Source: Moniliella sp. 'wahieum'
Taxonomy: Eukaryota
Length of the DNA: 64,000 bases
Assembly (NCBI GenBank): GCA_003971905.1
Contig: RSEE01000136.1
Location: forward strand, 1-64,000
Direction: 5' to 3'
Shown here: one piece after another, positions 233 through 56,024 of the stretch
Layout: each line of letters starts with the position of its first letter
Numbering within the stretch: position 1 is the first letter of the stretch
Position numbers and translations under genes: made by a program
Notes under the pieces: generated by a model
Told to the model about the DNA's origin: nothing
The model's input: the letters and a program-made list of their open reading frames with translations, nothing else
The model's database searches: none

Positions 233-2095
233 GACGGCGGAGTAGCGGCCGGACGGGCAGGAGGCGTCGAAGGCATCGGGGACGGGGCGCGTGGTGAATG
301 GGCAGGATTGCCGCGGGGATTGTGGGCGGGGATGGGAGAAGTGGACATGGTGGGATGCGGTTGGGCGTGAAGCACAGTGCGATGGGTGGGGGGGGCGGGG
401 GAAGGGGCGGGGGAAGGGGGGGGGAAGGGGGGGGGGGGGGACAGGGCAAGGATGCGTGGGTTAAAGAGTGGGCTTGCTGGCTGGGGCAGACCCCCAGGCC
501 AGCTGGCGCCCATGCCGGCTGGTGCGTCCCCCCTGCGGGAAGGTGCCGGGCAGCGGCGAGGCTCAGGTGCGGTCCCGGGCAGCCAGCGGCGAGGCTCAGG
601 TGCGGCGCCCACGCCGCCAGCAGGCGCGAGCGCATGCCAGGGACGATGGTGGTCAGGCAGACCAACAGGCACGAGCGGCACCGCTGCGCACGGCCCCCGG
701 CACATGGCACCCATCACCCATCCCAACCCACACGCTCACCGCTCGCCTCACCGCTCCCGCGGGTGGATGATTTCTTTCCGCCGGCCTGCCGCGGTGCGCT
801 TGGCCTGTATCCTGGCGCCCCTTGTCTCTGTTGACCACCACCGTCGTTACCCCCTGCACCCATCGCCCCGCCTGGCCCGCCCAGGAACGCACCACCGTCG
901 TTGCCGATCCCCAATGAGCGCCTGGCCCAGGCACCACCCAGCCCAGACTCGGCACTGGCCACGGTGCCAGCAGCGTTCGAGGGCCCGCTGTTTCCGCAAC
1001 GAAAGCTCACCGCAGTGTGCCCTGCTTGATGTGGAACATGGGTCGGATCCACACACTGCACCCCAACACATCTTTCACGCCCGTGTGGTGGCAGCACACC
1101 TTCCTGGTCTGACACAGATCGTTATGCAGGTAAAACCTGGGACGGCTCGGCGCATCAGGGTTCCAGCTCTGGCTCTGCCCCTGCCAGCGACTGCAAACAC
1201 AAACCAAGACCGCTGAGCGCCCTCGAGCAAATCCACACCTCAGTCGTGTTCACATCCTACCCCAGCTCGAGCCAGCCCGAGTCCGCTGGTCAGGCCCGGA
1301 CCAGAATCAGACACGGTTCAGGCGCCAGTCTGATGATCCATGACCCCACCCAGGTCGAACCAACCCCCCTGCCCCCCACCCGTAATCTGCCCTCCCTCTT
1401 CTGCCATCCACAATGGGGTCTCGTACGTAGATCCAATGACCATCTCGTTTTGCCCTGATCGCCGTGTCCACCCGAGCCACAACATAAACAAGTCGCATGT
1501 TCCAGCCTAGTGGCACGGCGCACACCCTGGCGACACCATCGAGCTGGGCCATAAATCAAACCCGGCAGCACCTGACCCAACGGCCAGCGCGACACCCAAT
1601 GAGAGTCAGAAGGAGAGAATCACAGACGAAAGATTGGCGGATGCAGTGGCTGACGCCCTCGCCGCTCCAGGGGAAGAACCAGGCACGGGGGATAAACAGC
1701 ACGCTGGCTCATCAGGTGGTGGGAGAAACAAAGATGAGCGGCTTTCGCTCCCGTGGGACCCAAAGCACCCCCCCCCCCGCAAACACAGGCCTAACGGCAA
1801 GGTGGAAGAGACAGACTAGCCTCTGCAAAGGCCATAGCAGATGGCGCATGTCGAACGCCTTGACACCGGAGGAGGACGAAAAAACAAGTGCTGGAGCAAA
1901 GACAAGTATCCGGGTGGAGGCGGAAGAAACAGGATGCGACGCAAATTGACACAGAACGCAAGCATAGTATCGAGACAGGGACCGTGGCTGCCGCCATGAG
2001 TTGCCACTATGACACTAGTGATTGCATTGGCCAGGAACGGGCCTACTGTCGTTGCCGATCCCCAACTGGGCGCTCGCCCAGGCACCACCCAGGCA

Positions 2096-3129
2096 AGAGT
2101 CGGGACTGGACACGGCGCAAGCAGCGTTGGAGGGCCGGCTATATTTGCTCAGGGCAAGCTCAGCGCACTGGTGTGCACTGTCCTGATCTGCAGCATGCAT
2201 CGAAACACAGTTGGCATTTGCACCCCAGGCCCACCGGCAGTACAGCAGGGCCGCACTTTTGCAGTGAATCCCAACCGAGCTGGACCGAAGGCCTGAACGT
2301 TGAAGGCCTGAGGCCTGGGCGCTGGGCGTTAAGCACTGGCAGCTCAGACTGAGCGCTGGGCCTGAGGGACGTGCGGGAGCGCGCTGCCAACGATGTACCT
2401 GAGCGCACACCCTGCGCCACTGCGTCCTCCTCCGCAGGAGGCCGCCCCCCCCGCTCCGGCACGCGGCATCTTGGCAGCAGCTGCAAGCATTGGCACGTCA
2501 CGCTTTTGCAGCTCCAGGCCAGCCCCGGCGTTCAACATTCAACGCTCCCGGTAACGCACGTGGATGCGGTCGCCTGTCGGGCGTACCATCGTCACCAAAC
2601 CGCGGCGTCCACAGCGCGTCGCATGTCACACACCCATTGTAACCCACCCTCACACGTACATGCAATGCCCCATCCCGGTCATGCCACCGCGGTTGCACTC
2701 TGGCTCCACCCCGCACGGAACATTCCCCGCCCCGGACCCTGTCACATCCGTTGCCGCATGCGGCTTTAGCGTGTGTCACATGTCACATGGCACATGCGGG
2801 CTCATTAGTAAGTAGCCCCCATGCCGATCATTTCGAGCTGGCACCGCCAGGACACTGGCCCCGCACCCAAACTGTCAGAGGTCACCAACCGTCAGGCACC
2901 TCCCTTCGCCCTCCGCACGTTTCAGAGGGCCAGCGTAAACTCTGCATTCCAGCACACAGGCCCCGCGCCCAAACTGTCAGAGGTCACCATCTGTCAGGCG
3001 CCACATTTTCGCACTTACACACTGTGGTGCCTGACATTTGCAACCTCTGCAATTCTGAGACGAAAAACGTCATTTTCATAGAGAAAATCGACGGAGTTAT
3101 GCAGTCCTTCACGTGAATATCTGACTAGG
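2096..3129. repeat. ~1.04-kb direct repeat, copy 1
   Basis: Nearly identical to 5083-6137 from AGAGTCGGGACTGGACAC through TTCACGTGAATATCTGACTAGG; the same ORF translations appear twice in the ORF track. Confidence 0.95.
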
Positions 3130-4049
3130 CAGAGCGTCGGACGGGGACGGCATGGCAAGCTGCACGGTCTGCTGGGACGGGTGCGAGGCAAGTGGGTACA
3201 TGGGCGAGACGAGCTTCCAGATGGCCAAGCCAAGCGTCCAGACGGCCCACTCAAGCGCGGCAGCGGTGGCAGCAGCCGAGACGGTGACCTTGGACGGCCA
3301 GGACGCCAGACCGAGGCCAGCAAGCATGCACAACGCCATGCACCATCCCCTGCACCATTCCCTGCTTCCGCTTGGCCGGCCCGACGGTGGCGATGGCCGA
3401 ATGAATAGTGATGGTGGCCGAGTCAATGGTGGGGATGGCCTGGGCGTGCGTGGGAGGTGGGAGCGCGGCGCTGGGGCGGGTGGGGAGGCAGGGGGACGTG
3501 AGAAAGCCGGCCCGGGACGGGGTGGGAGGTGGCTGCAGAGACACAGAAGCTGGGCAGACGACAGAAGCGTGTGGGTCAGCGGAGGCCTGGGGGGTGGCAG
3601 ATGAGGCGCGGGAAGCGTGAAGTGGAAGATTGGAGGCTCAGAACGAGGGGGTTAAACGAGGCAACAGACCTTGGGGGGCGGGCAAAGCCAGCCGGGTTGG
3701 GGGGGGGGGCGTGGTAAGAAACCAACCAGATCCGTCGCCTGGCCCGTGCATTCATCCGCCGCTGGCTGAAAATATTAACATTTGCAATTGCACCGATGCA
3801 CGCGCAGCCTGCGCGGTCAGATTGGCTCGGCCGCCACCAAATCGACCAAGCCGCCACCACCACCAACGCATCCACCGCCACACGCCCGTTCTCCATCGCG
3901 GTGCATCGTCTTGCCCCCACGCGTGCGCGTCTGAAGAGGACTACCTGGGGCACGCTACGCCACCACTCGTGCTCTGACTCGTCCCAAATTGGTGGGGCAC
4001 CGACGCTGTTTGTTGGGACCGTGCGCCGTCGGGACCGCACCTGAGGTAA

Positions 4050-4870: not shown

Positions 4871-5082
4871 TGCTAGCGCCAAATGAAGCACGGATATGGA
4901 CGATGCTCACCACGAGACGGCCATGCATGGTGACATGGGTGGTGGTGGTGGTGGATGTGGCTGGGGTTGGGGCGGTGGTGGTGGCGTGGCGGCGCTGGAT
5001 TAATGGTTTGCGCACACCAACATCAGATGCGCTGCGCCGGCAGCGCGCACAGCGGTGGACAGCGGTCGGATGGCCACAGGCC

Positions 5083-6137
5083 AGAGTCGGGACTGGACAC
5101 GGCGCAAGCAGCGTTGGAGGGCCGGCTATATTTGCTCAGGGCAAGCTCAGCGCACTGGTGTGCACTGTCCTGATCTGCAGCATGCATCGAAACACAGTTG
5201 GCATTTGCACCCCAGGCCCACCCGGCAGTACAGCAGGGCCGCGCTTTTGCAGTGAATCCCAACCGAGCTGGACCGAAGGCCTGAACGTTGAAGGCCTGAG
5301 GCCTGGGCGCTGGGCGTAAGCACTGGCAGCTCAGACTGAGCGCTGGGCCTGAGGGACGTGCGGGAGCGCGCTGCCAACGATGTACCTGAGCGCACACCCT
5401 GCGCCACTGCGTCCTCCGCAGGAGGCCGCCCCCCCCGCTCCGGCACGCGGCATCTTGGCAGCAGCTGCAAGCATTGCGCGTCACGCTTTTGCAGCTCCAG
5501 GCCAGCCCCGGCGTTCAACATTCAACGCTCCCCGGTAACGCACGTGGATGCGGTCGCCTGTCGGGCGTACCATCGTCACCAAACCGCGGCGTCCCCAGGG
5601 CGTCGCATGTCACACACCCATTGTAACCCACCCTCACACGTACATGCAATGCCCCATCCCGGTCATGCCACCGCGGTTGCACTCTGGCTCCACCCCGCAC
5701 GGAACATTCCCCGCCCCGGACCCTGTCACATCCGTTGCCGCATGCGGCGTTAGCGTGTGTCACATGTCACATGGCACATGCCGTGTTAGCGGGCGGCACA
5801 TGCGGGCTCATTAGTAAGTAGCCCCCATGCCGATCATTTCGAGCTGGCACCGCCAGGACACTGGCCCCGCACCCAAACTGTCAGAGGTCACCAACCGTCA
5901 GGCACCTCCCTTCGCCCTCCGCACGTTTCAGACGGGCCAGCGTAAACTCTGCATTCCAGGACACAGGCCCCGCGCCCAAACTGTCAGAGGTCACCATCTG
6001 TCAGGCGCCACATTTTCGCACTTACACACTGTGGTGCCTGACATTTTGCAACCTCTGCAATTCTGAGACGAAAAACGTCATTTTCATAGAGAAAATCGAC
6101 GGAGTTATGCAGTCCTTCACGTGAATATCTGACTAGG
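5083..6137. repeat. ~1.05-kb direct repeat, copy 2
   Basis: Matches 2096-3129 apart from small indels and one ~20-bp insertion near 5780. Confidence 0.95.
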
Positions 6138-6557
6138 GTAGATAGCTCGCTACCCGAAGGGGAGGGAGTTATGCCGAGGCGATAGCTCGCTATAAAATCG
6201 TCCGCTCTATGCAGCATATGGCCTCCGTTTTTCGATTGGGCCACCCGTTCAAAAGTTACACCCACCCATCCCTAACCCTACCCACCCCGACCCACCCCAT
6301 CCGTCGTATCTCGGCCGTGCACGGTCCGTTTGACCTCAGATTTCACACACCCCAGTCCAGAGGGTGCCCTTCCGATCCCCCTGCCACCAAAACATGACAC
6401 CCCTCTGGGCCGAATACAACACGTTCAAAGAAAAATGTTGGGCTACCCCCCAAACGACACCGAATATGGTGTCTGCCAGGTAGATCAGGAGGTGTGCTGA
6501 AAAAAAATATTTTTGCGTTGGGTGGTGGTGGTAGGTGGTGGCGACGGCCTTCCGGGT

Positions 6558-6591
<34 letters not shown>

Positions 6592-8833
6592 TTGCTATTT
6601 AATTAATGCTGGTCACCGGTGGGCGGTCACCGGGTGCGCCGGGGGTCATGACGGCAAGGCCAAAAATACCCTCGGATACATCAGGTGGGATCCCTCCAGT
6701 ACATCTAGATGTATCACAGGGATCTCGTGACACAGCCAGTCCCGTGACATCCCTCGGGAGTTGGGAATATGTCTAGGCCGTCGGCCAACATCTCGCAGGC
6801 GGCGGTCACCGTTGGGCGGTCACCGGGCTGGCCGGCGGGCCCGGCCGTGACTACATAGGTCATAGGCCTCAGGACTATTGAGGTATCGCATACGGGCTAG
6901 CCCGGTGGCGATAACCTCTGCCTCGATTGTTATGCGCCAGGGGACTATTGAATCTTTGAACATACGTCTAGGCTGCATGAGCGCCAGCTGCGCGCTGGGG
7001 GCGGAGAGGACGATGGCGGCGCTGGGCATGGTATGGTGGTGGTGGCGGCGCTCAACATGGTGGTGAGAGTGGTGGCGCGGCTGCAGCGGGGGGTGCAAGT
7101 GATGCGCCACACGTAATTAAAACGCCACTGGTATTTGCAAACTGGCGAGGGGGACGCGCGTGGCCGCCGCCCTCGTCACCCGGGGGCGTGGGGGGTGGGT
7201 GACGCCCCCTGACAGGCTTGGACGGCCGGCCAGAGGAATCAAATCTACCCAAATCCTTCCACGTAGACGGCACGGAGGGTACCCAGGTACTTTTTGTTCC
7301 TCTGGCACTCAATCCAGGAGCGGAATCTTCCCATCCATTCCGGAAAATATGTCTAGGCCAGGGCCTGTCGGCCCGCCGGCCCGGCCCAGAGCTTGTACAA
7401 TTTTCACCAACCGGGCTCGCTGGTTTTCACCTAGTGGTTTTTCAAACAAGGTGGGGGCCGATTTCAAATTGAAAATCACCAATTGATGCTGACAACATAT
7501 GTCTAGGGCACATGTCCATGTCATGTCGCATGTCAAATCGCGCATGCTGCATGCCCCATGCGCTGCATCACCGCACCGCGGCACCTGTCACCTGTCACGC
7601 GTCACGCGCCACCAGCGCACCAGCCACCGCAGTACCACGCATGTCCAAGCCAGTCTCCAGTCACTCATCACGCGTCACTTGTCAGTACCATGTCAGTACT
7701 CATTACATCATTGTATGTCATTCTATTGATGATTCGATGATCGACGTCCTCGGTCATCGGTGTGGCTCGGTGACTCCTCGGCGATGATCGATACGCCCGC
7801 GGTCCAGTGCTCCGACCGCCGGGCCTCGGCCTCAGCGGTGGTGCAGCCACTGCACCTGCGTGCGAGTGCTCCCACTGCCTGCGCCCCAGCTTTGGTGTCG
7901 TACCGCCTGCACCTGCATGATAGTACTTCAACACCTCAGCGCTGGTGGCTGGTGCCGCACCGGCTGTGCCTCAGTGCTGGTGCGGTCCTGCCTGCACTTG
8001 CATGTGCATGATGCATGACATGCATGATAGCGCCTCAAGCTTCGACGTCTTCAACGCCTCAGGCCTCAGGTCACCGGTCAGGCCTCAGGCCTCAGGCCTC
8101 AGGCGCCTCAGGGCAGCACCCAATGCGAATCACAGGTCGCATTGGCACACCAAGTGCACGGGCCATGCGGCTTGCACTGTGCCTGACATGGACTGGGGCC
8201 ACAACGCCTGCCGCATCGCAGAGCACCGCCGCTACGCCCGCTGCCCCTTGTTTGCTGCCGTTCACAACGGCAACGCCGCCACGCTGCACCCGCCAGATGC
8301 CAGTGTAGGAGAGCTCGGCCAGCGCTCAACGCTCAGCGGACGTGCCTGCAGGCCCAACTGCCCCGCGCACCACCTCGCACGCCCCCGCGCCCCCCGCCTC
8401 CTTCTCGTGGCCTGCTGGACTGAGGCATTGATGGGACTGATGATGAATGGATCAACATCTGGTCAATCTGCGTGCGGGATGGGTGTCCACCTGGCCATCT
8501 GCATGCGCCAGCACCATCCCCAGACCTCCTGGACCTCTCCACCCACCACGCGCTTGCACTGCAACTCATGATCCCACAACAGTAACAGCCAAGCTGATAG
8601 CGATGGTACACTATGGGTGCCGGGGGGTTGCATGAGCACGGGCGCGGCAGAGTCGTAGCAGATGTATGGCAGGTCGTCGGTACTGCCCCAGGAAGCGCCT
8701 CGGAAGGTGGCTATCGAGGGGCTGCGCGAGCAGCGGCCCGAGCCACCGCTTGTTCCATGGTTAGAATAGCTCAAGCGCACGTCGTAACTTCTAACTTGTC
8801 AACCAGCGAGAGGACCACCGGGCCGACGGCCTG

Positions 8834-9055
8834 GTTGAACACGTTGAACGTTGAACGTTGAACGTTGACCGTTGAGCTTGAGCTTGAGCCTCAGGGGCCG
8901 CAAGCTTGACCTCAAGGCTGAGCGGTTGAACGTCGAGCGGTTGAACTTCAACGTTCAACCTTGAACGGTTGAACTGTTGAACGGTTGACCGGTTGAACGT
9001 TGAACGTTGAACGTTGAACGTTGAATATTGAATGTTGAACGTTGAACGTTGAAGA
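8834..9055. repeat. Tandem (AACGTTG)n heptamer array with palindromic-core variants
   Basis: TTGAACGTTGAACGTTGAACGTTGA... with variant units AATATTG, ACCGGTTG, AACGGTTG and AAGCTTG. Confidence 0.95.
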
Positions 9056-9889: not shown

Positions 9890-10920
9890 CCGCATACCTC
9901 ACCCTATAGTGCACATAGTACCTTCAGTGGTGCCCCCCTCCCTGGGTACCCACCCTACTGCTGCCCCACTCCACCCAGCACTAGTCCAATCCCTCCTCTA
10001 CAAGTCCAATTAGAGCCCCCCAGCCGCAGCTCCCACCGTCGAGGAGCTATAGTGCTGACCTCACCGCCTTCACCCTATAGGACCATGTGTACACCGTCAC
10101 CCCTCCGTGGGTACTCACCCTACAGCTGCCCCACTCCACCCAGCGCTAGTCCCACCCGTCCTCTAGAGGTCCAATTAGAACACCCCGCCCGCGGGACCAA
10201 CGGTGGAGGAGCTGTCGTGCTACCCTCGGCGGCCCTCACCCTATAGGACCATATATACCAATGGTACCACCTTCCAACCATCACCCCTCCCTGAGTACTC
10301 ACCCTGCAGCTGTCCCACTCCCCCCAGGTCTAGTCCATAGCTCCCTCTCCAAGTCCAATTAGTGCACTTTCGGGGTAGCAGCACATGGGGAGGGAGATGT
10401 GGTACTCTCCGTGCTCTTCACCCTATATAGTACATATACTGTCGGTACCACCTACCACCCGTCACCCCTCCCTCACCACTCCCGACAGCTGCCCCGCTTC
10501 GGCCAGCGCTAGTCCATAGCTCCCTCTCCAGGTCCAATTAGTACACTTCCGGGGTAGCAGCACATGGGGAGGGAGAAGTGGTACCCTCTGTGCTCTTCAC
10601 CCTATATAAGACCATATATACCCTCCGTACCACCTTCCAACCATCACCCCTCCATGACCACTCACCCGACAGCTGCCCCACTTCGCCCAGCTCTAGTCCT
10701 AGGCTGCCGTACCAAGTCCAATTAGTGCACTTTCGGGGTAGCAGCACATGGGGAGGGAGAAGTGGTACCCTCCGTGCTCTTCACCCTATATAGGACATAT
10801 ACTGTCGATACCACCTACCAACCGTCACCCCTCCATGACCACTCACCCGACAGCTGCCCCACTTCGCCCAGCGCTAGTCCTCGGCTGCCGTACCAAGTCC
10901 CATTAGTGCACTTCCGCCAC
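9890..10920. repeat. rDNA intergenic spacer subrepeats, ~6 copies of ~170-185 bp
   Basis: Recurring TCACCCTATA...ACAGCTGCCCCACT...CTAGTCC...GTCCAATTAG at ~9900, 10070, 10237, 10418, 10597 and 10781. Confidence 0.92.
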
Positions 10921-10974
10921 AGCAGCAACCCTAGTACACCTCACTTAGTACCATTCACCCTACAGACCCCTGTA

Positions 10975-24900: not shown

Positions 24901-26284
24901 TCACCACGCTGCCGATTCTAGGGGCCGAGGGAAGAGGAGCGGGCAGCATAGTGGGAGCGGGCGCCAAGACCTCGTGGGCTGGACTGGGCGCAGACGCGCA
25001 GCGTATGCTCATCGTCCCATTCTTTCTGATGGCGTTCGTCGTGGGGCGTGCTTGTCTGGATATTGACTCTGATTTGCGACGTATGTTACCGCGCTCACAG
25101 GTTCCTGTGTTTTTCTCCGTACGTCCTCCCAAGCGGCCAATCGTCGCGTAATGCATGAAAACGACACCCTACAAGACGGCTTTCCCTGTGGACCGTGCCT
25201 AAGAGCCAGGGGACGAGTTAATCATGGAAAGTAGGATGGCTAATATCCAAGTGCCTGAGCGACATGTGGGCGGGATGGGCTGTTGGACGGGAGGGAGGCA
25301 ACTGGTGGTGGCACAAGACGGAATAAGTCCACCTTGGTCACCAGTGTGCCTGTGATGGCCGTCGTGCGTCGCGAAGGGTTAGTTTGGGCGATGGTGGCGG
25401 CTTGCGTTGCTTGAGCAAGTCGCAAGAACTAGTAGCTTGAATATTGTGAAGCTTGAAGAGGCTGAGACCTTGTCACGGGTCGGGCTAGATGGTACGAAGC
25501 GTACAAACAGGGAAGGAGCGAGACGCTCGGACGAAGACACTGGAAATGGGAGCGAGAGCAGCCAGGCCATGACATGTGACAGCTATTGATGCTTAGCGCG
25601 TAGCGCCGACCAGACGCCTGCAGTATTCATTCTCACCCCGCCGGGCGAGCATGCACTTGTCGCTGCCCACCGGCTGCCCGCAGTCTCAGGGTGTGGCGCG
25701 AAGTGACTAGTGACTGTGACTGGTGACTGCGACATGTGACGCATGTGACGCGTGAGTGATTGTGACCACGGGCGATCGATGATCGATGATCGATGATCCA
25801 TATCCATGATCGATGATCGATGATCATCGATGCAGTTGATGACGCAACACACACCGTCGCAGCAATGGCGAGCAAGGCGGGGGGGATCGGTTGGTGCCTA
25901 GCAAGCGTCGCAGACTCGCCTGTGGCCTCCTGTGGCGGGAGGCGAACCTGCCTCGGATACTGGCCAATGCAAAGGCAACTCCTTATGTATACCACCCCAC
26001 ACGAGAAGAGCACAAGACACGCGTCGCAGTTTCAACGTTCAACCATCGATCACTGATTAATGATCGACGACCATACTCTGTATCTGTGCGGTGCGACTCA
26101 GTATAACATGTACGTATGGTAACCGCTAAGCCGCCGAAAAAGCGGAGGGCGTACGGATACTTCGGCCGAATTGGAGCTACCACACTCACGCACGTTTCCC
26201 CACAACCTGCCATAGGACACTTAAAAAGGCAGATGATTCCATCCCCCCACCCTTCCTTACTCTTCACCATCACCACCTACTACC

Positions 26285-30278: not shown

Positions 30279-32213
30279 GCTCTGGCCACAGCATATGGGT
30301 TTCCCTACCACCCTTTTACCGAGCCCCTAGGCATCTTTTTCACTTTGATGATTGTCGTCTGTCCCCAACAGTCATCTGTTTTCCATCCAAGGCCTACTAA
30401 ACTCACACTGAGAGCCAACAGAACTCTCAACAAGCCCCTTCTCCTGGTCATCCTCCCCTTCTCACCAAGAGTCCTACACGGTGACAGCTCGATCCGTCAA
30501 CCTTCTTATACTGTAGCATATTCCATTTCGAATACCAACTATCCATCCTCGTTTTCGCCTCCCATGATGTGCATGATGGTTCCTCTAACCAGGCTCACAA
30601 TCTACCAGGCTCACAATCTCGCAGAAAACAGGGGATAAAAGCCGAGTGCGGTGATCCCCGCTTCAGACTGGCCCGGCGCGTAAGGGGAAGACGTGCAAAT
30701 AGCTGGACGAGGCAATCCACATGTATTGATAGAACGCAGAGAAGATTGGTGGGTAAAAAGGAGTTGTGGAAGATGGCGAAGAGATGACGGCAGCAGGGAG
30801 GGTTGCTGCACGCCTGATACCTTTATCCTCATATGCCTCGTGGCCGCGTCGATGGATCAAGCGTGGCGCGTAACACGTAGTTGGCAATGGGCCTGCTATC
30901 CAATATAGAACCTGGGGCCTGAGAGGCCTGAGATCGAGAGGCGCCCACCGGCAAAAAGACGCAGGTACTCGATACACTGCAGGCAAATACAGAGCGGAAA
31001 CCATCAGAGCCATCATGCATCACCCGTCCGCAGTCGCACAATGGCGCTGCGCACCATCGAAGGCACTGGGTCTGTGCGATGAGCGCCACCTACCAAGTCT
31101 CCTGTCGAGATGCGGGGGCGCACCCGCTGCGGACGCGCTGACGACGGACCGGGGGAGGCGAGGCTGGCGACGCAGGACGAGGCAGTGGCTAGCGGTCGGC
31201 GGAGCAGCAGCGACCAACGGAAAACGAACACAGATCGGGGCACAGACCCTGCACCAGCCGAACGGTCGTGCGCACGGGCCCATCGATGTTCGTCTCGCGC
31301 TAGCATCATGCATCATGCATCACAACAATAAGAAGCCACAGTAGCATACGTGGGTGGAGAGCGGCCGGAAGGAGAGAGCGGCCACGTAGCCCCTGTCACA
31401 TGCATGTCACATGCTCCATGCCACATGTCAATGTCACATGATGCATGACGACTGACGCTACTGAAGCTATGATCCTGTGTCCTCGGCCTACTCAGTACTC
31501 AACGTACTCAACGGTGAACTCCACTACGTACGTCACACGTCAACGTTCAACCAGTCGGCGTGGGCTTCTGCATCAGATAATCGATGATCGATGAATTGGT
31601 GAAGCTTAGCTTGAAGCTTGAGGCTTCAAGACGTTGAAGCTTCCCGTGAAGCTGGAAGCTTAGAAGACGCACTCGGGCTTCAGCGCTTCAGCGCCGGCGA
31701 GAGCTAACCCTCCTGAGGACGGTCGCCGGGTATTGAATTCGGACAAGAATTGCTAATTGTGGGAGCACGGGGATTCAGAACTCAGGATCCCAGAGAAACG
31801 CGCACAGGCACCGCGGACGACGGAGTTCGAGGGACACGATTCCATTTGTAACATGTAACAGGTAAGCGCTGTTGGATGTTGGGTACGTACCTAACCTATT
31901 TTGGCCACACCGAAAGAGACGCTTCGATCGTTCCCAACCAGTTTCATGAGGCGGTTCAACGTTCAACAAACCTTAACTGTGGCGCAGAGCGCTAGCTAGT
32001 CCCCTCTCCACGACACGGGGCACCGCACACCACGCACCGCGCACCCACGTTGTCAATTCTTCTCCCTGTGGACTCCGAATCCCCAGCTGGCTTTCACAGG
32101 GAAAGTAATATATGTAGAGGCCCCCGCAGCCTCTTCTGCGCAGTTCGCGTTCTCTCTCTCCCTTCCTCACGTCCATCGACCATCCTATTAACATCTGCGT
32201 TTCCCCTCGACCC

Positions 32214-33927
32214 ATGTCCTACCCTGGTCCTTCCATCCAATATCCGCCTTCGGGCCAGGCGGCTCCCTCGACTCCGCACCGGCCTCGGCGTGGCCCCATT
32301 CGGATTATCGTCCTGTGCGATGGCACGTGGGCGTCGCGAGAGGCGGTGTTTACCAAGGTGCAACAGGGTGTGGCTACATCCAAGACGGCGTCGGCTGACT
32401 GGTACACCAATGTGGCCTGTTGGCGCAATGTATTCTGCCTGCTGCCGACCGGGCAGATGGGAACGGGTACGTGCGCCCGCAGATCCTGCACTACATGACG
32501 GGGTTGGGGTCCATGCCGGACTTGAAGCAGAAAATTGTCCAGGGCGCCACGGGCCAAGGGATTGACGATAAGGTACTAGAGGGCATCCGGTTCATTTACG
32601 ACAATTACCAGCCCGGGGACGAGATCTTGCTCTTTGGCTTCTCCCGCGGCGCGTTTACGGCGCGGTGCATTGCTGGCGTGATTGACTTTGCCGGCGTGCT
32701 GACCAAGCCGCAGAGCATTCGTCTCAACGAACTGTGGAAGGCGTACATTGAACGTCGACCAGACCAGCCTTGGACGATTGCCAGGGCGTGCTACGTGTTG
32801 CATGACATTACCGGTCGTTGGCCGAACGGGAGTTCGGTCGGAGTAGCGAGCGTGGCATCGGACCTGGTCGCGGCACATTTGCCCAACGGGTGTCCCAGTC
32901 GCTCAAGCACATCAGTATCCTGCGTCCGTCTCGTTCGACACGTTGACCCAAGGTGCCAATCCTGCGAACCTGTGATGCCTAGTCCTACGGTAGAAGTGGT
33001 GCCTATCAAGGTGGTAGGTGTGTGGGACACGGTGGCTGCTCTTGGGGTGCCCGGGCTGTTCAAGACGTTGGCCAATGAGCATATGACTTCCTTTTTCGAC
33101 CCGGGCTTGGGTGCCGGGGTGGAGAATGGGTTCCATGCACTATCACTTCACGAGGATCGCAAAGATTTCCTACCTACCTTGGGGTACCAACAAAAAAACG
33201 CTCCTCGCAACCAGATTCTCAAGCAAACGTGGTTCCAAGGGTGCCACGCTGATGTGGGTGGAGGCTATTCTCTCCATGGCCTGTCCGACATTACCTTAGC
33301 TTGGATGGTGGCTCAACTGCACGACCATCCCTCGGGCCGCTGGGGATTGACTTTGACCACCTCCGGTCGCTGCAGGACAAGCGGTACGTGGGCCAAGCAG
33401 GCGGAGCACGAGAGTCGGATGGCGATCGAGGAGCAGGCGGTGCGGCAGGTGGACAATGAGCGCCTGACCAAGGCCGATCTGGTTGGTGTCGTATGGAGCG
33501 ACATGCTCCAAGGTGGGCAGTAGCGCCCGGCACGAATCGCTTCACTTTTCGTCGTCGTGGGTGGGACGTACAATCCTGTACCTCGCCGCAGTTTGAGGCG
33601 CTGCGCAAGCAGGACCCGAACCGGTTGACGTACCTTTGGCAGCAAGCTAGCAACCCCAATACGCTCCTCCCGACCGAGCGAGCTCTTCGGGGCGCCGGAA
33701 CGGAGAAGCCCGTGCCGCCGACTCTGCAAGACAAGGCCTACGACCATATGATGCAGACGTCCCAAGGCTTGCAAAAAGTGGCGGACCAGTTTGTCAACAA
33801 GTTCCACGTTTCCGACACGCACAACTTACGGCCTGGCACGTTGGGGCAGGGTATCGAGGCCATGCGTTCTCGCTTGGACCACAGTCCTTTGTCAATGAAG
33901 GAGCGTGTTGACAAGGACAGCCGCTAA
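32214..33927 (+). CDS. DUF2235 / Tle1-like alpha/beta hydrolase (putative phospholipase); apparent frameshifts
   Basis: Motifs in order: RIIVLCDGTW, TNV, Y..GLG, YQPGDEILLFGFSRGAFTAR, IKVVGVWDTV, HALSLHEDRKDF.PTL, QTWFQGCHADVGGG, LSDITLAWM. Confidence 0.93.
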
Positions 33928-34244: not shown

Positions 34245-37200
34245 TCAGAACGTTCCACAAAGCCGAGGGGAACATAAAGTAGTCCAAGACCTTGTCCAAC
34301 CGCTGGCAAGTTCCTCCACCTGTGCCCGGCGAGCTTTACGTTTCCTCGTACGCAGTCTCCGAGAGACGAGCGATCTCTTCCAGCGCGTCAATCTTAGCCT
34401 GAGCCGGGCGGTGGCCAGCTCATCGTTCGAAGCGGGACCCAAGGGGGCGGGAACAGCGTCTTCAGCTCCGGTTGTGCCGTCTTGCGGTGTGGCAAGGGGC
34501 ACGATCCCAGCCGCGGCCTCGGCAGCCCAGCGGGGCCCTTCACCAGGCGCAAGGGGGGGTACCCCCGCGGCGGAAAAGCTGGCGCGGGTCTTACTCTTTC
34601 TACTTGGTGCCGCGGCCACCGCCTCATTTCGGCCTTGACAACAGCCCGCTGCCACTTGCCATCTCCCGAGTGCGCTTCTCGTCCGCTTCGACAGCATCAA
34701 GGCGATACTGGATGTGCTTGATCACTTTGAAGATCCAGTAGGGCCAGTTAACCATCTGCCACCTCGGTTCCTGTTCCAACACGAACTTTTCTTGGGCCCA
34801 CACTTGTGCTTCTGGCGACTGGGGTGGGGGTCGCACGTCCGGCTCCGACTCCCGCCTCGTTCATGGTCTCCTCCGAGGCCTCGTCCGCATGCACTGGTTT
34901 CTCGTCCTCATTTTGGGACTCATCCCCAGCCTTCTCGGTAGCGTCGGGAGGTGGGGGGTGGTGTGGTTGGCATCTTCAGTTTCCATTTCCTCGACGGGGA
35001 CAGGATCCCGTTGAGGCTCGGGGGAACATCGGGTTGGTTGATCGTGCTCGTGTCCAGCTCGGGGGTGACTCTGAGTTCGGCGACAGTCGAAGGGGGGGGA
35101 ACGGTTTGCCGTAAATGTAGAGCCCCCAGGCCCAACGGCCCTGGGTGTTCTTGGGCATAGATTCGACATACTCGGTCAAGTGCCAATACTCACGACCGTC
35201 AACGTCGGTGCCAAGCGGGCCCGAACGCTCTTGGTTCGGTTGAGGGTGGTTGTAGAGTGCACCTTGCGTTGCTTGAACAGGTTCCAGGCCACGTTGCGTT
35301 GCTCGCGTGTTTTCTACAGAGAGGGGCAATACATTAGTTAGCAAAAAAACAGCAACCAAAGGACGGGATTGGGGAGGGGGGGGGGGAGACGTACCTTGCG
35401 TCCCAATTCCTCGATGTACCGTTGGACAGTCTCGTTGTCCAACTTTTCTTGAGCGCTGCATGCGTTCCTTGTGCTCCGTCTTGATCGGGTAAGGTCCGCA
35501 CGAGTCCCGCTCCGAAGCGGCGACATTGTTCCACGCCTCCACCAGGTCCGTCCGAACGGCATTGGTACGAGGCACAAGGGTGTTGACCAACGCGCCGAGA
35601 ATAGCCACTCGTTGTTCGAAAGGCGGGGCAGGGACAGGAGCCGTCGGAGGTGGGGTGGGCGTCACAACCACTTCCACCGCTCCAGCGTGCTCTGGTTCGA
35701 CCGAGCCATCCTGGTCGGGGGCAAGCGACGGGCTGCGCTGCTGGGAAGAGCCGAGGCCTGACGCGAGATGGATACGGAAGCCGATTGGGCCCGGGAAGTT
35801 AGCCCTGATGGCGGCTGTCCCCGGGGGTGCGGCCAGAGCGCCTCAGCTCCGTGGCTCGGTCCCGATGCACTTTCTTTGCTGATGCGGGGGGTACGTCCAC
35901 GGGGGTTTGCGCACCAGTTGAGTCGGTCTGATGATCTTCATCTTCGTCTTCACTGGCTTCCGCGGAAGGGGCACCGTCATAGTCCTTATCGTCAGCGCCA
36001 TCTCGTCCATGTCGTCATCGCTGTGGATGGATGCCTCAGCAAATTCTTGCGAGGAATATCAATGTTGTTGAGCTTGGCTCGTCCGGCTCGAGTAAGGACG
36101 CGTCTGCTTGTTCCCGGAGCCAGGGAACATCTGACATTGGCGTAGCTACCTGCTCATCGGGCACTTCGACAAAGTTGTGCTCAACGTCAGGCAGGTCCTC
36201 AATCTCCACTGCTCTGCCTTGAGCCACTCGCGTGCTGCCTCCCATGCTTCACCACGCATCGATGCGTCAGGCGCATTGTGTAGCATCCGCACCGCCCGGA
36301 CCAAGGGCAACTCCGGCAGAGCACCGCTGTAGTTTGGTTGGCATGGTCTGAAGCGACTTGGTCGTCGTACCGGCCAAACAAGCAGTCACTGCCTCGAGAA
36401 TCTGGTTGAGCATGCGCGGATCCCAGTCATCAAACCTGTCCAGCCGACGAAGAACAGAACCGAGGCAGGGGTAGCAACCGCATCAAAACGAACCAGAGCC
36501 TCGTAAATCCACATGCGGGCGAACAGATTGGCAGTGGGCAAGGACGAGTCGACAGCACCTGTCAGCGGTGCCTCCTCCAACTTGGGAGCAACCACAACGG
36601 GCTTGGGGCGGATCTTGGGGATGTCCGAAGCAGCCGATTTCTTCCTTTGGCAGGCGTCGTCTTCCCTCCCTTGGTGGGTGGCTTTGGCAGCCTTAGTAGG
36701 CGTTGCTTTGGCTCCCTTGGTGGGCGTCGCTTTGGTTCCCTTGGTGGGCGTAGCTTTGGTCTGCCCGTAGCCTTGGCTTTGGTCGAGGCTGGCCTTGTCT
36801 TGGCCGTAGCTTTGGCGGCTGTCTTGCCTTTGGCGGTCGATGACTTGGCTTTGGACGTGTAGTTTTGGTCCCCTTGCCAGTGGTCGCTTTGGCCTTGGTG
36901 GAAGCCTCTTGGGTGCGGCCTTGCCCTTGGAGGCAGCAGTGGTTTTGACAGACTTGCCCTTGGCGGTGGTGAGGACGGGTCAGGCTCCGAGCCAGAGGCG
37001 GGCTCCTGGTCTTGCCCATCGACATCCATCAGTTCTGCACCGTTGCTGTCGTCTTGCACATCACTTCGTCCTGGGCTTTGAACAAGGACTTGGGCTTGCC
37101 ATTGGGGAGGAACTTGAGCGCCAGGGCCTCATCGTCCGAGCTGTCTGGAGATTGCGGGGTCTGAGCCTTGACCTTGGCGGATTTGGTTTGTTTGGTGGAT

Positions 37201-49056: not shown

Positions 49057-52000
49057 GGCGAGCAGAGCGGGGACGGAGGGGGTGGTGGAAGAAGGAGGGC
49101 AGAAGGACGGACGGAGGCTGGGGAGTGCCAGAAGCGGGTGTGGGTTGCTTGGGCTGAGCTGAGCGTCCGCAGTGAGAGCGAGTGGTGTGGTGGGGGGGGG
49201 GGCAGGAGGCAGGCCGGGGGCGGAGAGCTGCTGAGAGGGGGGTGTGGAGAAGCGACGAGGGGCGGCCACACTCGCTCGAGCGGCAGACGGACTACTGGGT
49301 GCTGCGCTCGGAAGGCATACGCAAGACAGACCAAGTAGCGATGACGTTGGATGGACTCAGCTTGCTCGGGCGCTGAGTGAGCCAGTGGCGGGTGCGGCCT
49401 GGGGCAGTGACTATAAAAACTCGGGAACAAAAACGAAGGCCGTCTGAGATCTGAGATCTGAGATGCGACGCACCAAACACACCGAGAGTGCTGGCGGGGC
49501 GCCAGCGCTGCGGCTGAGCGAGCCCGACACTGCTCAGCTCGGGCTGAGTACTCCGACTGCGTACTACTCACGCCCAGGCAGCCGACGAGCAGCGCAGCCC
49601 GCCAATCGTCGCTAATCCAAGTAGGGATTAACGTTTAACGTTGATTCCATTTCCGCGGCAGGCGGGGGAGCGCTGATCGCTGATCGATGATCTGATCCCA
49701 TAGCGCTGCAGTGCCCAGTCCCCCGCTGCACCCTGGTGCGCCAACCCTAATCAGGCGGACGATGACGGAGCGGGAGGGTTAGACCGGTTCGAGGGGGTGG
49801 CAAACAACAGGCGATGTGCCCGGCACTACCACTCACTAGACTCACACTACCCATGGGCCGCAGGCACGTTTGGGCACTTGCCTTGCCAGCACATTATCTC
49901 TCCGACCCACCTTCCTTTTCCAGGCCATCCCCCACCGCATCACGCACATGTGTCACACACGAGCCCCCGTCCCGCAGCACACGCCACGCGCCACGCGCCA
50001 CGCCAGGCCACGCCCTGCCCCTCGCCTCACAGCGTCTTCAACGCATCTTGATCAACCCGTAAAAAGATGGCCCTGGAAAACAACGCAACCTTCTCCCACT
50101 TACGCGCGCCCCCTCCAACACTGTCGCATCATCCATCAACGTTCCACATCCCAGGTCGGAGCAGCCCGGAGCGCGGAGCGGTGGCTATATTTAGACGGGT
50201 GCGCTTACGCTTAATAGGACGAAGCTCAGCAACGCCCAGCCTACCAACAGAGTGTGAGTGCCTTGGAGCTTGGAGCTTCGCAGACGTTTTTAGCCTTGCT
50301 AGAATACATCCAAAGTGGTCTGGCCAGCATGGCAGAGGGCCTGGCAGGGCCTGGCCCCTAGGGTGCTACAAACGGTGACCAGTGCCCGCTCACGCGCTCA
50401 CTGCGCTGAGGCTCAGCGCTCAGCCTGAGCTCAGCGCTGACTACGATCGCTTGACTACTCCAGAGTGCCTCAGCCAGCGCTGAACGCTGAACGAACGCTG
50501 AACGCTGAACCGTTGAACATCGCTGAGCCTCAGCGCGCTGAGCAGATGGCATGCTCTTCAAGCTTCGAGCTTCAAGCGACCAGTCTGGTGAGTGAGTGAC
50601 TAGTGACTAGTGACTAGTGCTGTCCCTGCTCGGTCGCTCAGGCCGAAGTGCCCCTATAGATCCATTTCGCTCGCAGCCACATTGTTTTACACCTTCCGCT
50701 GTAAGTGCCTGAGGGGCCTGAAGCTTGAAGCCACCTGATGCTGAGCGCTGAGCCTCAGCGCTGATGTGATTAATCCTTCTCGTGGACATCATATCGCATT
50801 CTGCGTGGATCCCCCTCCGTTTTTTTTGCCCTGTTTGTCTTCGTCTATACCAATAACGTTCTCGAACGTGTAGAAAAATGCTAATGCCTAGTGCAGCACT
50901 ATACTCTGATCTTCAAGCTTCATCGCACCGGCCTGCCACCCCAGAACTGTGGAACCGGTATACATGTGGGATGCTACCACGGTTCATTACGTCCATTGCC
51001 AAGGCAAACGTGCTATATAACGCAAGGCTGCGCACTTTTACTTCGCTAATGCGTCTCTATCGGCCCATAGGCGCCGCCGGAAGGGCAGCCCAGGCAACCC
51101 TCGCAACAATCCAAACCCCCAAACCCCGCAGGAAAAAAAGAAAAAAGGCCCCCCTGAACTCTCAGGATCTCAGCATCCCAGGTCTCGATCTCATACACAT
51201 GGATCTCAGGATAATGCGAACGCTACAGTTACCGAACTGTGAGTTTAACATTTACTCAGTCTCGGGCGAGAGTCTGGTACCGAACCATTCATTGATCGAC
51301 CGTTGAACGCGCAGCGCTGAAGCTCAGCGCCTCAGCGCGCTCCGATCTCCTCGGACCGCGGACCTCTTGCCTCCGGACCAATTAGGTCGGCCGTCTCGCG
51401 CCTGGTCGCCAGTCGCCAGCATCCCCCCGCGCCCTCCGTCGAACTATTCTCAAGGAGAGCAAAGTTTTTAGTGCTTTCCAGAGTGAGCCCGTGAAGCGTG
51501 AGGGGGTGATCAGCAATTCATGGTCGGAGGCATGATGCATGATGCATGATGAGATGCATGATGACGCTGACATGTGACTGTGACATGTGGCTGTGACAGG
51601 GGTGTGCCTGGTTGTGCACAGAACTGGCTAGGCCCACTAGTGCGCCATGCCTGAATAGGAAGGAGAGAGGACAAGCGATATAGATATAGATAGATACGGA
51701 TGGCACAACCCTACCGCAGTGTACCCACCCGTACCACGTACCCTCCTATATGCGTGTCGCCCATTAATCATTCTGCATCAACCAGCAAGTTCAACCTTCA
51801 GTCCCCCCCACACGCCTCCCTCGCCCATCCGCACGCGCAGCCCCAGCCCCCACCACCACACCCCACAGACCGCCATGTCACAGTACATCGCAGCTGGGCC
51901 AGCGACCAGCACCAACTGCTGAGCTGCAGCGGCGTTGAAGCGCACCGTCAGTACACGCACTTGCCGTTCTCTCCGAGGCACCGTCAACTTCAATTGCTTC

Positions 52001-53107: not shown

Positions 53108-54940
53108 TCACCTCTTGAACAAACGCTTGGAATTCGGCCAGCAACATACTACTAAAGTTGACGAGTGTGGTTCTCTATTTCGGCCGCTACTGTTTGCGTA
53201 AATGGGTAACATGCATTTCAGCACACAGTGGACTGCTTTCTCGAAAGGCACACAAAATCGGTTTCTTGCTTTGGGGGTGAGCGTGAGCTGCTCCACGTCC
53301 TCCAGCACCTCGCCCAAGCTATGCTCCAAGGCCAACAACATGTGGTCCTTATAAGCCTGGATTGGCACCGGGACCTGAGAGTTCGGCGTGCTGCCGATGC
53401 CAATTAGGAAATGCTCACACTCGGGACAAGATGGCTACGTTGGTTACTCGGCCCGTTCCTGCATCAACAGTTGTGCATGCATCCCGACCCTGTCATATCG
53501 GCCTCGGCCGATCCGCTGGATCCATCCTTGTTGTACCCAAGAAAGAGCGAAGAGGGACGTAGAACGTCACGCTGTCATCGGTGCCCGAGAGCGTGGCTCG
53601 CATTGGGCTCACCTCGCCGACCAACCATGCCTTGTACTGCGCTTCAAACTCGACCCGCTCACGCCAGGCCAGGACAAGCTCTTGCTGCCATGCCTTGGCT
53701 GACGGTTCACCGGACTGCCCACAGACCGGGTGAGGTGGGTGCGGTACTCGCGCGGCCAATTCCGGAGAGAGTGGGAGGGGATGGCGTGGGTGAGGAAGAT
53801 ACGAGGCCACGGTTATGGAAGCTGATTGCAAAGCGGGTGGGTGAGCCTGGAGGTAGGTGAGCTGGAGATAGGTGCAGGTAGTGGGGATCCTACCGTTATG
53901 CAATACTACACAATCCTTGTTGTGCGCTGGCTGGGTCGATCTGAGCGGCAAGGCCAATTGGCAATTGGAGTCAACTTTGAGGTCCCTCAACGCGCGGCAC
54001 TAACCTCAACTTATTGTTCCAGCCAATAAAATCATCGATAATCGCTAACCTCCAATCTACCAATGGGCGAGCTCCCCTGGATCCCTCCACTTCGCACCTC
54101 GCTCGGCTCGGACGTTACTAGTTACTACGTCTACGGCAGCTACACGGAAGGTACCGTCCAAGACGACTGAAGCAAGTTCGTTGACTCTGTTGGGTCCAAC
54201 GTCCCTAGGCTCACAGTGCCAAGGGTAACCGGTAACCCTTGGCAGAAAGTAGAGTAGGCGGCTCCGAGTAACCGAAATGACAAGCTAGGTAGCATAATAC
54301 ATCGCCAGAACCCTGCAGGGGTGGGGACGTTGCTATTTGCACATACTTCCCACAGGGAGAAGGGGGGGGGGGGGGGGGGCGAGACGGGGAGAACGGGTGT
54401 ATGGCGCGCGCGCGCCCCCTCCCCCACACCTCCCTGAGGTTCAACGGCGCTTCTTGCGTCCCTGGTTCATCTGAGCGGGCAACCAATCTGGGTCCACGTT
54501 TTCAGGAGAGGCGGTGTGTCGACAGCAGAGGAGATGGCTTGCTCTGCTGCTCCAGGTCGTGCGTAACCTCGTCGGCCGAGACGTCTTCACCAGCACGAAT
54601 GCGGGCGGCCAAGGCAGGTGAGATGCTGACCTTTTTGATTGGTTTGGAACCCCGGTGCACCACGTCCAAGGCCCGTGGTGGGTCGTAGGCACTGTGTAGG
54701 CAGACTTGGACTTCTTGCCCCGGCGCCGCTTGGGCTGGGCTGGCTTGCTCAGTACGCGGTAAAGCACCAGCCCCACAAAGCCCAACGCGCAGAGTGGGAG
54801 CGCCACCCAGGCACTGGTGAGGGGTTAGTGGCCTGTGCCTTGCTGTGGGGCCGTGAGGAGCGGTGAGAGAGCGGGGGACCTACAGAGAACGGTTTGTCCG
54901 ACGACATGAGTGCGGAGATGAAAGAAGGTGGTGGCTGCAT
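53108..54940 (-). CDS. Hypothetical spliced protein with N-terminal hydrophobic segment
   Basis: Consecutive minus-strand coding-like segments (LPLCALGFVGLVLYRVLSK...KRRRGKK; KAWQQELVLAWRERVEFEAQYKAWL; AYKDHMLLALEHSLGEVLEDVEQL) with GT..AG signals between them. No family recognised. Confidence 0.4.
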
Positions 54941-56024
54941 TCGTGGAGCTTCGCACCGACGGGCGAGTGCGAGGTGGACGCATCACGTGATACTTGAAAT
55001 GTGAAAGTTGGGAGGAGCAAGCACGCGGTTGACAAGCAGTTTCAAATTTCACCTTTCACCGCGTCTCTACCTGACAGCACTCAGTCTGAAGAGTACTCTA
55101 TATCAGAGTGCGGCTCCAACTTCCGAGATTCGCGCTCGCCTCAAGCTTCCAGTCTGCCTTCAGGTGTACGAAGCGACGCAGAAAAGGCTCTGACCTAGAA
55201 CCACCTAGATTAAAGCAAACACGACCAGAGAACGTCCATAATCAAGTACCCAGATGAGCGAAGTATAGTCTTGTTGAAGGCGCAAGCTGTCCTCAGATCA
55301 CCACTACTGTCCATCTCCCAATCGCCGTCCGAAGTATTCATCTGATGGAGATAGGCAGAAGAGGGTGCTTGGGTTTCGCAGATCCAACGGCTATCGGTGC
55401 CACAGAAAAGAGATTAGGTAGCAGGAATGATCAGTTTTAACGCGTTTTTGGTTTGCCGCATATCTGCCGAGGTTGTCTAGTAGCGAGACGTGCGGGGGCT
55501 GAACCGTGTTGAGATCCAGAGTAGGCTGTTACAGTGCCGTTGTAGTGGAGAAGGCAGCCTGGATTACTAGTGATGGTAGGCTCACAACATCGGTGCGTGC
55601 ACCCTTCTAGATATGAGGACGCTGACCTATCGCGACCCGACCAGGACAGCCCTTTTTGGAATGGAAGACCTGGCTCGCACAGCAGCCAAACTTTGAGTTA
55701 GGTGTAAAACCCACGCCATGGTTGCTAGTGCGCTGTTGCTGTCGTCAAAAGGATACTGGACCTGCCAGTGGGACTCACTGAGCCACGTTGCAATGCGCAG
55801 CCTGCAGATGAGCATGAGTTTGGGCCTATCCTGATCCATCCGTCGCCGTGGCAACACAGTACCGGCAACATTATCTTGGCCCTGAAAGCACTGCTCTGCA
55901 TCGCCCCCTGGGGTATAAGCTGCCCATTCGAAGGTTCAGGAGTGGAATCGGGCGGTAACTGGGAGGATGTTGGGCACCCACCGGCTCTGAGCAATTAGCT
56001 GAGCAATATTGGCTGTGGAATAGC

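Follow-up and report, generated by a model that had tools for sequence, protein, structure and literature searches.

Heptamer repeats centred on T-N-A in a Moniliella contig: probable excision scars of a hairpin-forming DNA transposon

The enzymes of hAT, Transib, RAG, and MULE elements form hairpins on flanking DNA, which host enzymes open and end joining turns into footprints, as set out in part of the account in PMC5499845. Here we describe intergenic heptamer repeats that share one grammar across the first 64,000 nucleotides of contig RSEE01000136.1 of Moniliella sp. 'wahieum' (GCA_003971905.1), hereafter the window, the longest of them being a composite array at 8834..9055. Like the footprints of the hairpin-forming elements (hAT, with Ac/Ds and Hermes; Transib; MULE) and like V(D)J coding joints, these loci have a fixed-length direct repeat around a junction at which 0-2 bases on each side form the reverse complement of the end of the neighbouring flank, a match to the hairpin chemistry in the relevant portions of PMC5499845 and PMC4561436. 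They differ from known hairpin footprints in that the repeat is 7 bp and centred on T-N-A, the density is microsatellite-like, and no element is seen.

The hairpin of RAG and Transib lies exactly at the border, and that of Hermes is offset by one base; the even palindromes at the window junctions (x y / y' x') thus point to an exact-border hairpin as in RAG and Transib, unlike the Hermes offset. A footprint palindromic about the terminal base, as in hAT and Hermes, is not what we find, the palindromes being even, as in TGTCAGT-AC/CA-TGTCAGT. Canonical hAT elements use an 8-bp nTnnnnAn target with the first nick one base into the flank; the main class here is instead 7 bp, nnTnAnn, and only a single 8-bp scar at 55987 fits the canonical pattern. 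Families of hAT with 7-bp duplications (hAT7) are reported from rust fungi in part of PMC12730594. They resemble the window loci in the 7-bp duplication and the basidiomycete host, and they belong to a hairpin-forming superfamily; their hosts are rusts, however, whereas the host here belongs to the smut group, and the comparison drawn from that part of the paper covers duplication length, host, and superfamily.

Two further superfamilies come close in shape. PIF/Harbinger (PHIS) elements resemble the window loci in the use of T-N-A, a free middle base, and a short palindromic context: NuwaII elements duplicate C/TNA/G (PMC4482050, in part), mPing tolerates every middle base in a duplication of T-N-A type and leaves by precise excision (PMC4561436, in part), and TWA duplications occur (parts of both). 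Their duplication is 3 bp, however, and their excision normally precise (as far as the pertinent part of PMC4561436 goes), whereas here the repeat extends two bases to each side of T-N-A to make 7 bp, so the loci are not PIF-like. Tc1/mariner (Stowaway) footprints, which retain the duplication plus element ends, share the arrangement of duplication, short palindromic insert, and duplication (PMC4561436, in part), but the insert comes from constant element ends; the window inserts covary with their flanks over 16 cores, and because the cores vary with the flank, the loci are not mariner-like. Hairpin-prone microsatellites such as CAG/CTG are also built of self-complementary units that fold strongly as single strands, and they too grow secondarily by slippage, but in the window arrays the period and the T-N-A centre are fixed and the palindromic bases are templated by the flank. 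The 'palindromic microsatellites' of Fusarium mitochondria, which we considered and set aside, are a different thing, (A)n-TATA-(T)n (PMC7218506, in part), and the ultra-short elements of Podospora mitochondria are taken here from parts of the citing papers PMC7272585 and PMC1864894 alone. A full-text literature search found no description of the heptamer grammar; transposon excision scars are of a known kind, and a 7-bp target centred on T-N-A at a density that generates microsatellites is undescribed.

A heptamer grammar centred on T-N-A

The grammar is real and far above chance. At about 50 separate loci (52 chains), T-N-A trinucleotides 7 bp apart flank a 4-bp palindrome. Against 100 third-order Markov surrogates, 10-mers with a palindromic N4 between two copies of a junction trinucleotide number 37 for TGA (0.97 expected) and 25 for TCA (0.69 expected); the best other junction trinucleotide is CCC (9, with 2.2 expected), and none besides TGA and TCA stands out. 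A first-pass annotation of this DNA had proposed such a shared grammar and named, as its test, enrichment of the palindromic cores over a Markov background and over other junctions; both are borne out. Spacings between TGA or TCA of the same type peak at 7 bp (105 vs 25.6, z = 17), with harmonics at 14 and 21, and there are 17 perfect period-7 runs of about 2.5 copies or more, as against none at periods 8-10.

Among the 51 perfect period-7 runs of at least two copies, the unit is a palindromic hexamer plus one base in 29, so that 57% of units are self-complementary vs 10.5% by chance; at periods 5, 6, 8, and 9, self-complementary units are at or below chance. By type, 28 of the 29 are A....T and one is C....G, with no G....C or T....A, whereas as single hexamers C....G and G....C palindromes are commoner in the window than A....T. 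All 16 A....T cores occur between T-N-A junctions, including AAATTT at 55042 and ATATAT at 27943. The first-pass annotation was right about the wide range of cores and short in its count of 14; most of the positions that it gave are exact within 1-6 bp, and two of its cores, ACATGT at 25731 and AAGCTT at 50557, have a one-sided junction. Its restriction of the linker to G or C does not hold: the middle base is free, with an A/T linker in four of the 28 A....T runs (31847, 49628, 54114, and 54224), close to the background share of TWA among T-N-A sites.

The middle bases of a unit's two junctions agree (GG 37 and CC 25 vs GC 3 and CG 2), and pairs of opposite type (TGA...TCA) give no peak over spacings of 3-21. 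The structures are therefore direct repeats and not fold-back palindromes, a reading that we dropped, TGA...TCA being unenriched at those spacings and GC/CG junction pairs at background. What underlies them is a direct repeat of 7 bp with T-N-A at its centre. No convincing conserved bases were found in the flanks beyond the 7-mer, 3-bp TNATNA duplications are not enriched (d = 3, 32 vs 34.3), and single odd palindromes outside the arrays show a mild excess only (132 vs 102.5), with none for longer arms. Hairpin thermodynamics behind the T-N-A centre was also tried and dropped: by nearest-neighbour DNA energies, four copies fold at -7.38 kcal/mol for A....T and -7.43 for T....A, vs -10.5 and -10.6 for C....G and G....C, and because A....T units fold like T....A and worse than the other two, hairpin stability has no role in the choice of centre.

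The main locus combines several of these features, and its inner segments are given here as delimited by Tandem Repeats Finder:

8834..9055, strand not assigned: longest composite array, GTTGAAC units joined by 0, 1, or 2 extra bases
8841-8875: period 7, 5.0 copies, 96% matches
8872-8889: period 6, 3 copies
8925-9053: period 7, 17.9 copies, 82% matches, 4% indels

The array starts with GTTGAAC-AC-GTTGAAC, and G, which complements the last base of GTTGAAC, fills three of the four single-base spacers. It includes a 6-mer derivative (TTGAGC x3), and both 6-mer and 8-mer derivatives have been amplified, so slippage also acts. Its AATATT and AATGTT cores are, on direct reading, CpG-to-TpG derivatives of AACGTT. 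As single-stranded DNA, the array folds at -54.7 kcal/mol (z = -9 vs shuffles). Two units between 8940 and 8965 are inverted (TTCAAC for TTGAAC); we speculate that fragments with identical self-complementary overhangs might flip.

Such observations bear on the explanation that these are ordinary microsatellites whose expansion by slippage is favoured by hairpins of self-complementary units, with no other process at work. Strong single-strand folding (z = -9) and the amplified 6-mer and 8-mer units agree with it, as does the greater share of palindromic units in the runs of at least 21 bp (7 of 8, vs 22 of 43 shorter runs, by hand count). It predicts, however, C....G and G....C units at least as often as A....T, where the types number 28 A....T, one C....G, and no G....C or T....A, and a like effect at periods 6 and 8, which is not observed; nor can it yield the spacers and the arm replacement specific to TNA that are described below. 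Together with the period and folding results, these contradict it as the sole cause, and we judge it very unlikely. Slippage by itself is insufficient for the grammar and is likely a secondary process, and the earlier argument that ordinary slippage alone is inadequate is upheld, only period 7 being enriched and only the T-N-A centre used.

Palindromic bases in spacers and flanks

If the direct repeats were scars of opened hairpins, palindromic (P) nucleotides copied from the flanks should stand between the copies. Of 32 cases in which adjacent TNA-centred 7-mers have one arm in common and differ in the other, 20 (chance 1/12) have as their differing dinucleotide the exact reverse complement of the arm that is retained, against 15 of 287 pooled over 15 other centre types; where the outermost base alone differs, it is the complement in 8 of 13. 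Spacers between TNA-centred 7-bp repeats have 0, 1, 2, or 4 bases. All six 2-nt spacers (8097, 8834, 25735, 30563, 30918, and 31497) are either the reverse complement of one copy's end or made of one base from each copy, a rule held by 7 of the 27 between other 7-mers. Exact 2+2 structures fill the 4-nt spacers in two of four TNA-centred repeats vs none of 39 other 7-mers. These 7+2+2+7 structures, predicted from the hairpin model ahead of the search for them, are found twice (7680 and 31394), with a Markov expectation of 0.00, and the 7+0+2 class is found 10 times, some of these being shifted views of one locus, against 0.40 expected. The loci in question are the following:

7680..7697: TGTCAGT-ACCA-TGTCAGT, a non-palindromic TNA-centred 7-mer, 7+2+2+7
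8097-8112, in the 7510..8112 cluster: CCTCAGG-CG-CCTCAGG, 7-mer, 1 + 1 palindromic bases, 7-mer
25735-25750, in the 25702..25830 cluster: TGTGACG-CA-TGTGACG
30563..30578: CATGATG-TG-CATGATG, isolated, 7-mer, 2 palindromic bases, 7-mer
30911..30933: CCTGG-GGCC-TGAGA-GGCC-TGAGA, containing CCTGAGA-GG-CCTGAGA
31394..31411: TGTCACA-TGCA-TGTCACA, 7+2+2+7 on a palindromic 7-mer
31489..31513: AC-TCA-GTAC-TCA-AC-GTAC-TCA-AC, a +7 and then a +9 footprint, both on the 7-mer ACTCAAC

At 7680..7697, the spacer ACCA is the reverse complement of the last two bases of the left copy followed by that of the first two of the right copy, which makes this locus an exemplary footprint, with P nucleotides on both sides. 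The 9-mer tandem repeats at 25733, 30916, and 31495 are all three preceded by 'ab T-N-A' (exactly at 31489, and with one mismatch each at 25728 and 30911), as would be expected had a +7 event taken place earlier on the same 7-mer; the preceding 'CC T-N-A' with its one mismatch at 30911..30933 fits two successive events.

Flanks were read at isolated loci only, array 'boundaries' often being junctions with neighbouring degenerate units, and for the same reason array boundary phases and extension classes were discarded as evidence. Both flanks match at eight of the 23 isolated loci, one flank at 11, and neither at four (about two expected by chance). At seven of the 11 one-sided loci, neither of the two bases on the non-matching side is right, as expected of an unrelated original flank and not of decay. 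That the one-sided loci came from perfect 14-mers by decay was rejected on this count and on the distribution of mismatches, with nine in the four outer positions and four (three unique) in the ten inner ones. A further reading, in which two hairpin ends with T-N-A loops lie side by side as adjacent odd palindromes with different arms, was also rejected, with two such cases seen vs 28 with the same arm. The side on which the palindromic bases lie has no link to G or C: by a hand count there are 13 loci for each side, seven TGA and six TCA in both, plus two TTA.

These structures could in principle arise without an element, by polymerase template switching, a generalised form of the mechanism put forward in the first-pass annotation, in which a 3' end that has stalled just beyond T-N-A-x-y uses its own strand as template for 2-3 nt and then realigns on the original template to recopy TNAxy, adding 7 bp per cycle. 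Such switching yields the commonest minimal product, TNAxy-y'x'-TNAxy, which is one-sided in 11 of the 23 isolated loci, retains the same middle base in both copies, and requires no element, none being present in the window. However, zero-loop copy-back (x y followed directly by y' x') is not a product of polymerase fold-back and is typical of opened sealed hairpins in V(D)J and hAT chemistry, and both 7+2+7 and 7+2+2+7 (7680 and 31394) would need two separate copy-backs around a full 7-bp repeat. Nor does template switching explain why the T-N-A centre should be strict while its middle base is free, and the want of a link between G or C and the palindromic side tells against it as well; we consider it unlikely.

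Probable excision scars and competing origins

We favour the explanation that the heptamer grammar is probably made of accumulated excision scars of a cut-and-paste DNA transposon, or of a nuclease with the same chemistry, and that these scars seeded the arrays. The patterns and statistics above are the observations; from them we infer an element, a hairpin, the position at which it is opened, and a repair route. The element would insert with a 7-bp stagger, duplicating a 7-mer t1 t2 T N A x y as a target site duplication (TSD) centred on T-N-A, and because the whole 7-mer is duplicated, successive junctions would share N. On excision, each flank would be sealed as a hairpin exactly at the TSD border, and a host nuclease would open the hairpins about 2 nt from the tip, so that two bases pass from one strand to the other and each flank ends in a palindromic 3' overhang of 4 nt (x y y' x' on one flank, t2' t1' t1 t2 on its partner). 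If the strands were joined directly, the outcome would be t1 t2 TNA x y y' x' TNA x y, or the mirror image of this, with a net gain of 7 bp in every case and, for any x and y, two T-N-A of identical N on either side of a 4-bp palindrome.

When the 7-mer is already an odd palindrome, the two overhangs would match each other and cohere, giving a perfect tandem duplication of 7 bp, a form seen in GTTCAAC x2 (31954), GGTAACC x2 (54224), and TGTAACA x2 (31847). A non-palindromic 7-mer would give (t1t2)TNAxy-y'x'-TNAxy or the mirror image, itself containing a new palindromic 7-mer, and fill-in of the overhangs ahead of joining would give +8, +9, or +11. Each scar would double the preferred target, so that arrays could grow through re-insertion as well as slippage; re-insertion, slippage, small indels, and CpG-to-TpG decay would then build and erode them.

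The likeness to P-nucleotide footprints of hairpin-forming transposases, already suggested by the first-pass annotation, is favoured by the arm and spacer tests, and with it that part of its claim of a recurrent sequence-directed process. The remainder of that claim is unsupported: a process specific to TGA does not agree with a free middle base and a palindromic side indifferent to G or C, and the proposed cycle of a nick 2 nt 3' of TGA, copying of 3 nt, and realignment involves a polymerase step that is not needed and, as written, does not give the +9 and +11 structures, the entity that is repeated being the 7-bp direct repeat.

Several points weigh against the excision-scar explanation. All repeat statistics come from a single 64-kb window of one assembly, a limited base. 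No element with a TNA-centred 7-bp repeat and terminal inverted repeats was found in the window, all five hits of the scan being array self-matches, and no transposase domain occurs among the 217 stop-to-stop open reading frames (ORFs) of at least 110 aa, shorter exon-sized ORFs being unscanned. The scar density is high, at about 50 loci in 64 kb. No superfamily known to us has a TSD of 7 bp with T-N-A at its centre, and the features of canonical hAT elements would lead to A-N-T junctions and odd-palindromic footprints, which are not seen. Twelve of the 32 differing arms break the P rule. Palindromic 7-mers make up nearly half of the inferred targets vs 1/16 by chance, an excess that calls for extra assumptions (re-insertion, slippage, and decay) or a target preference, and array growth by re-insertion is indistinguishable from slippage. 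The arrays are identical in the two copies of a duplicated segment, so no polymorphism is observable. A 12-bp tandem repeat at 39165-39194, TTGAACGTTCAG x2.5, belongs to the small number of TGA...TCA cases; its unit contains TGAACGTTCA, a perfect palindrome of 10 bp, and the simple model does not account for this repeat. Miniature elements with inverted repeats were considered as well and rejected, the candidates in the window being array self-matches only.

A host enzyme that forms hairpins, such as a domesticated transposase, might instead repeatedly break T-N-A-centred sites in open intergenic DNA. The sequence evidence for it is identical to that for excision scars, and it would explain both why no element is present in the window and why clusters lie upstream of the three recognisable genes. 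A 7-bp direct duplication, however, normally comes from integration, through staggered strand transfer and gap repair, and not from cutting alone, and the window holds no candidate protein, which leaves a host nuclease rather improbable. As to the maker of the scars, we raise, as a tentative and by no means probable suggestion, that it is uncatalogued: either a new eukaryotic cut-and-paste group with 7-bp T-N-A duplications and exact-border hairpins like those of RAG and Transib, or a domesticated enzyme of that sort that breaks promoter-proximal DNA in this lineage.

The duplicated segment is 1.08 kb long and occurs twice (2040-3135 and 5027-6143), about 3 kb apart, at about 99% identity. Its copies differ mostly by single-base homopolymer indels, which may be residual long-read errors, and by one 22-bp indel beside a TGTCACA repeat. 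Those homopolymer indels would lend some colour to a sequencing or assembly artefact as the origin of the grammar, but no known artefact yields a T-N-A-phased, flank-dependent palindromic grammar at about 50 sites with 16 cores, and the heptamer arrays are the same in both copies; an artefact is extremely improbable.

Other loci, neighbouring genes, and implications

The remaining heptamer loci of the window are as follows:

2294..2328: TGAACGTTGA then AGGCCTG x2, unchanged in the duplicate at 5282-5316
2774-2789: TGTCACA x2.3, unchanged in the duplicate at 5758-5773
7510..8112: TCA-phased heptamer cluster with cores ACATGT, ACGCGT, AGTACT, ATGCAT, AGGCCT, and ACCGGT
25702..25830: cluster of AGTGACT x2, degenerate GTGAC units, and GATCGAT arrays
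31303..31322: GCATCAT x2.9, ATGCAT core
31540..31967: TCAACGTTCAAC, ATCGATG x2, AAGCTTG units, and CTTCAGC-G-CTTCAGC, upstream of the DUF2235 gene, with exact two-copy TGTAACA x2 (31847) and GTTCAAC x2 (31954)
49443..49697: TCTGAGA x3.1, TTAACGT x2.1 (T linker), and CGCTGAT / GATGATC units, upstream of the GH79-like gene
50387..50760: dense cluster of AGCGCT units in both orientations, AGTGACT x3.6, AAGCTT units, and GCTGAGC x2, with a non-palindromic GCTGAAC array
51530..51600: GCATGAT x3.1, then degenerate TGAC-phased units
54114..54237: GTTACTA x2 (T linker) and GGTAACC x2 (A linker)
55987..56006: CTGAGCAA-TTAG-CTGAGCAA, an 8-bp direct repeat with 2+2 palindromic bases

The flanks of GGTAACC x2, CCAAG..CTTGG, lengthen its palindrome. 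The 8-bp structure at 55987, seen once with 0.00 expected, is possibly the trace of a second, hAT-like element type.

The window has a G+C content of about 59%, and three of its 217 stop-to-stop ORFs of at least 110 aa have Pfam matches:

32399-33520, + strand: DUF2235/Tle1-like domain
37032-38558, - strand: zf-4CXXC_R1, weak match
47177-47575, - strand: GH79 C-terminal domain, weak match

G+C at third codon positions (GC3) gives little coding signal and was set aside as an uninformative gene finder; the region either has few genes or holds many that are lineage-specific. The DUF2235 protein has its best named relatives in Tilletiaria anomala (45% identity), Tilletia horrida, and Sympodiomycopsis, and the GH79-like ORF at 48252-49634 has its own in Ceraceosorus, Thecaphora, Pseudozyma flocculosa, and Tilletiaria (53-57% identity). 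These matches place the source of the DNA in the Ustilaginomycotina, with no named species in the protein collection closely related to it. The top matches of the DUF2235 (32399-33523) and GH79-like (48252-49634) proteins, at 64% and 72% identity, lie on one 21,011-base contig, so a related species keeps the two genes close together.

The heptamer arrays are intergenic, with clusters upstream of the DUF2235, GH79-like, and zf-4CXXC_R1 genes. This position, and the frequency of TGAC/GTCA in some clusters, would suit arrays of binding sites selected for a regulatory protein that reads TGA half-sites in promoters. Yet all 16 cores occur and any middle base is allowed; spacers that follow the P rule, and x,y that covary with y',x', are traits of copying and not of a single protein's site, which makes selected binding sites a highly improbable origin.

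Other repeats in the window are of different make. C-rich tandem repeats of 165-184 bp, in about six copies that are 63-89% alike, occupy 9904-10927, where the GC skew is strongly negative, and TTGG-rich repeats of 136-138 bp, in about two copies, occupy 13044-13365 and contain shorter TTGG and TGGTTGGTTGGC runs. Diverged direct-repeat families with spacings of 129-130 bp, about 171 bp, about 513 bp, and about 680 bp lie at 59798-62390, overlapping long ORFs on both strands (e.g., 61454-62653, + strand) that have no Pfam match; they may represent a repetitive protein gene or decayed repeats. Long G runs include a 57-base G-rich tract (384-440) and a perfect G18 (40653-40670).

If the loci are excision scars, a whole class of 'microsatellite' in a fungal genome would be a fossil record of transposon visits and not of polymerase slippage, and each scar would show, base by base, which target was used, where the hairpin was opened, and how the break was repaired. 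The scars would define the target (nnTnAnn, 7 bp) and the chemistry (an exact-border flank hairpin) of an unseen element, making that element directly searchable, and would provide naturally occurring data on how a basidiomycete opens hairpins and joins ends. They would also exemplify a self-reinforcing path from a single scar to an array, each event duplicating the preferred target just upstream of genes. Should the maker indeed be uncatalogued, it would be a lineage-specific mutator that creates its own target with each event and makes palindromic heptamer microsatellites in regulatory DNA.

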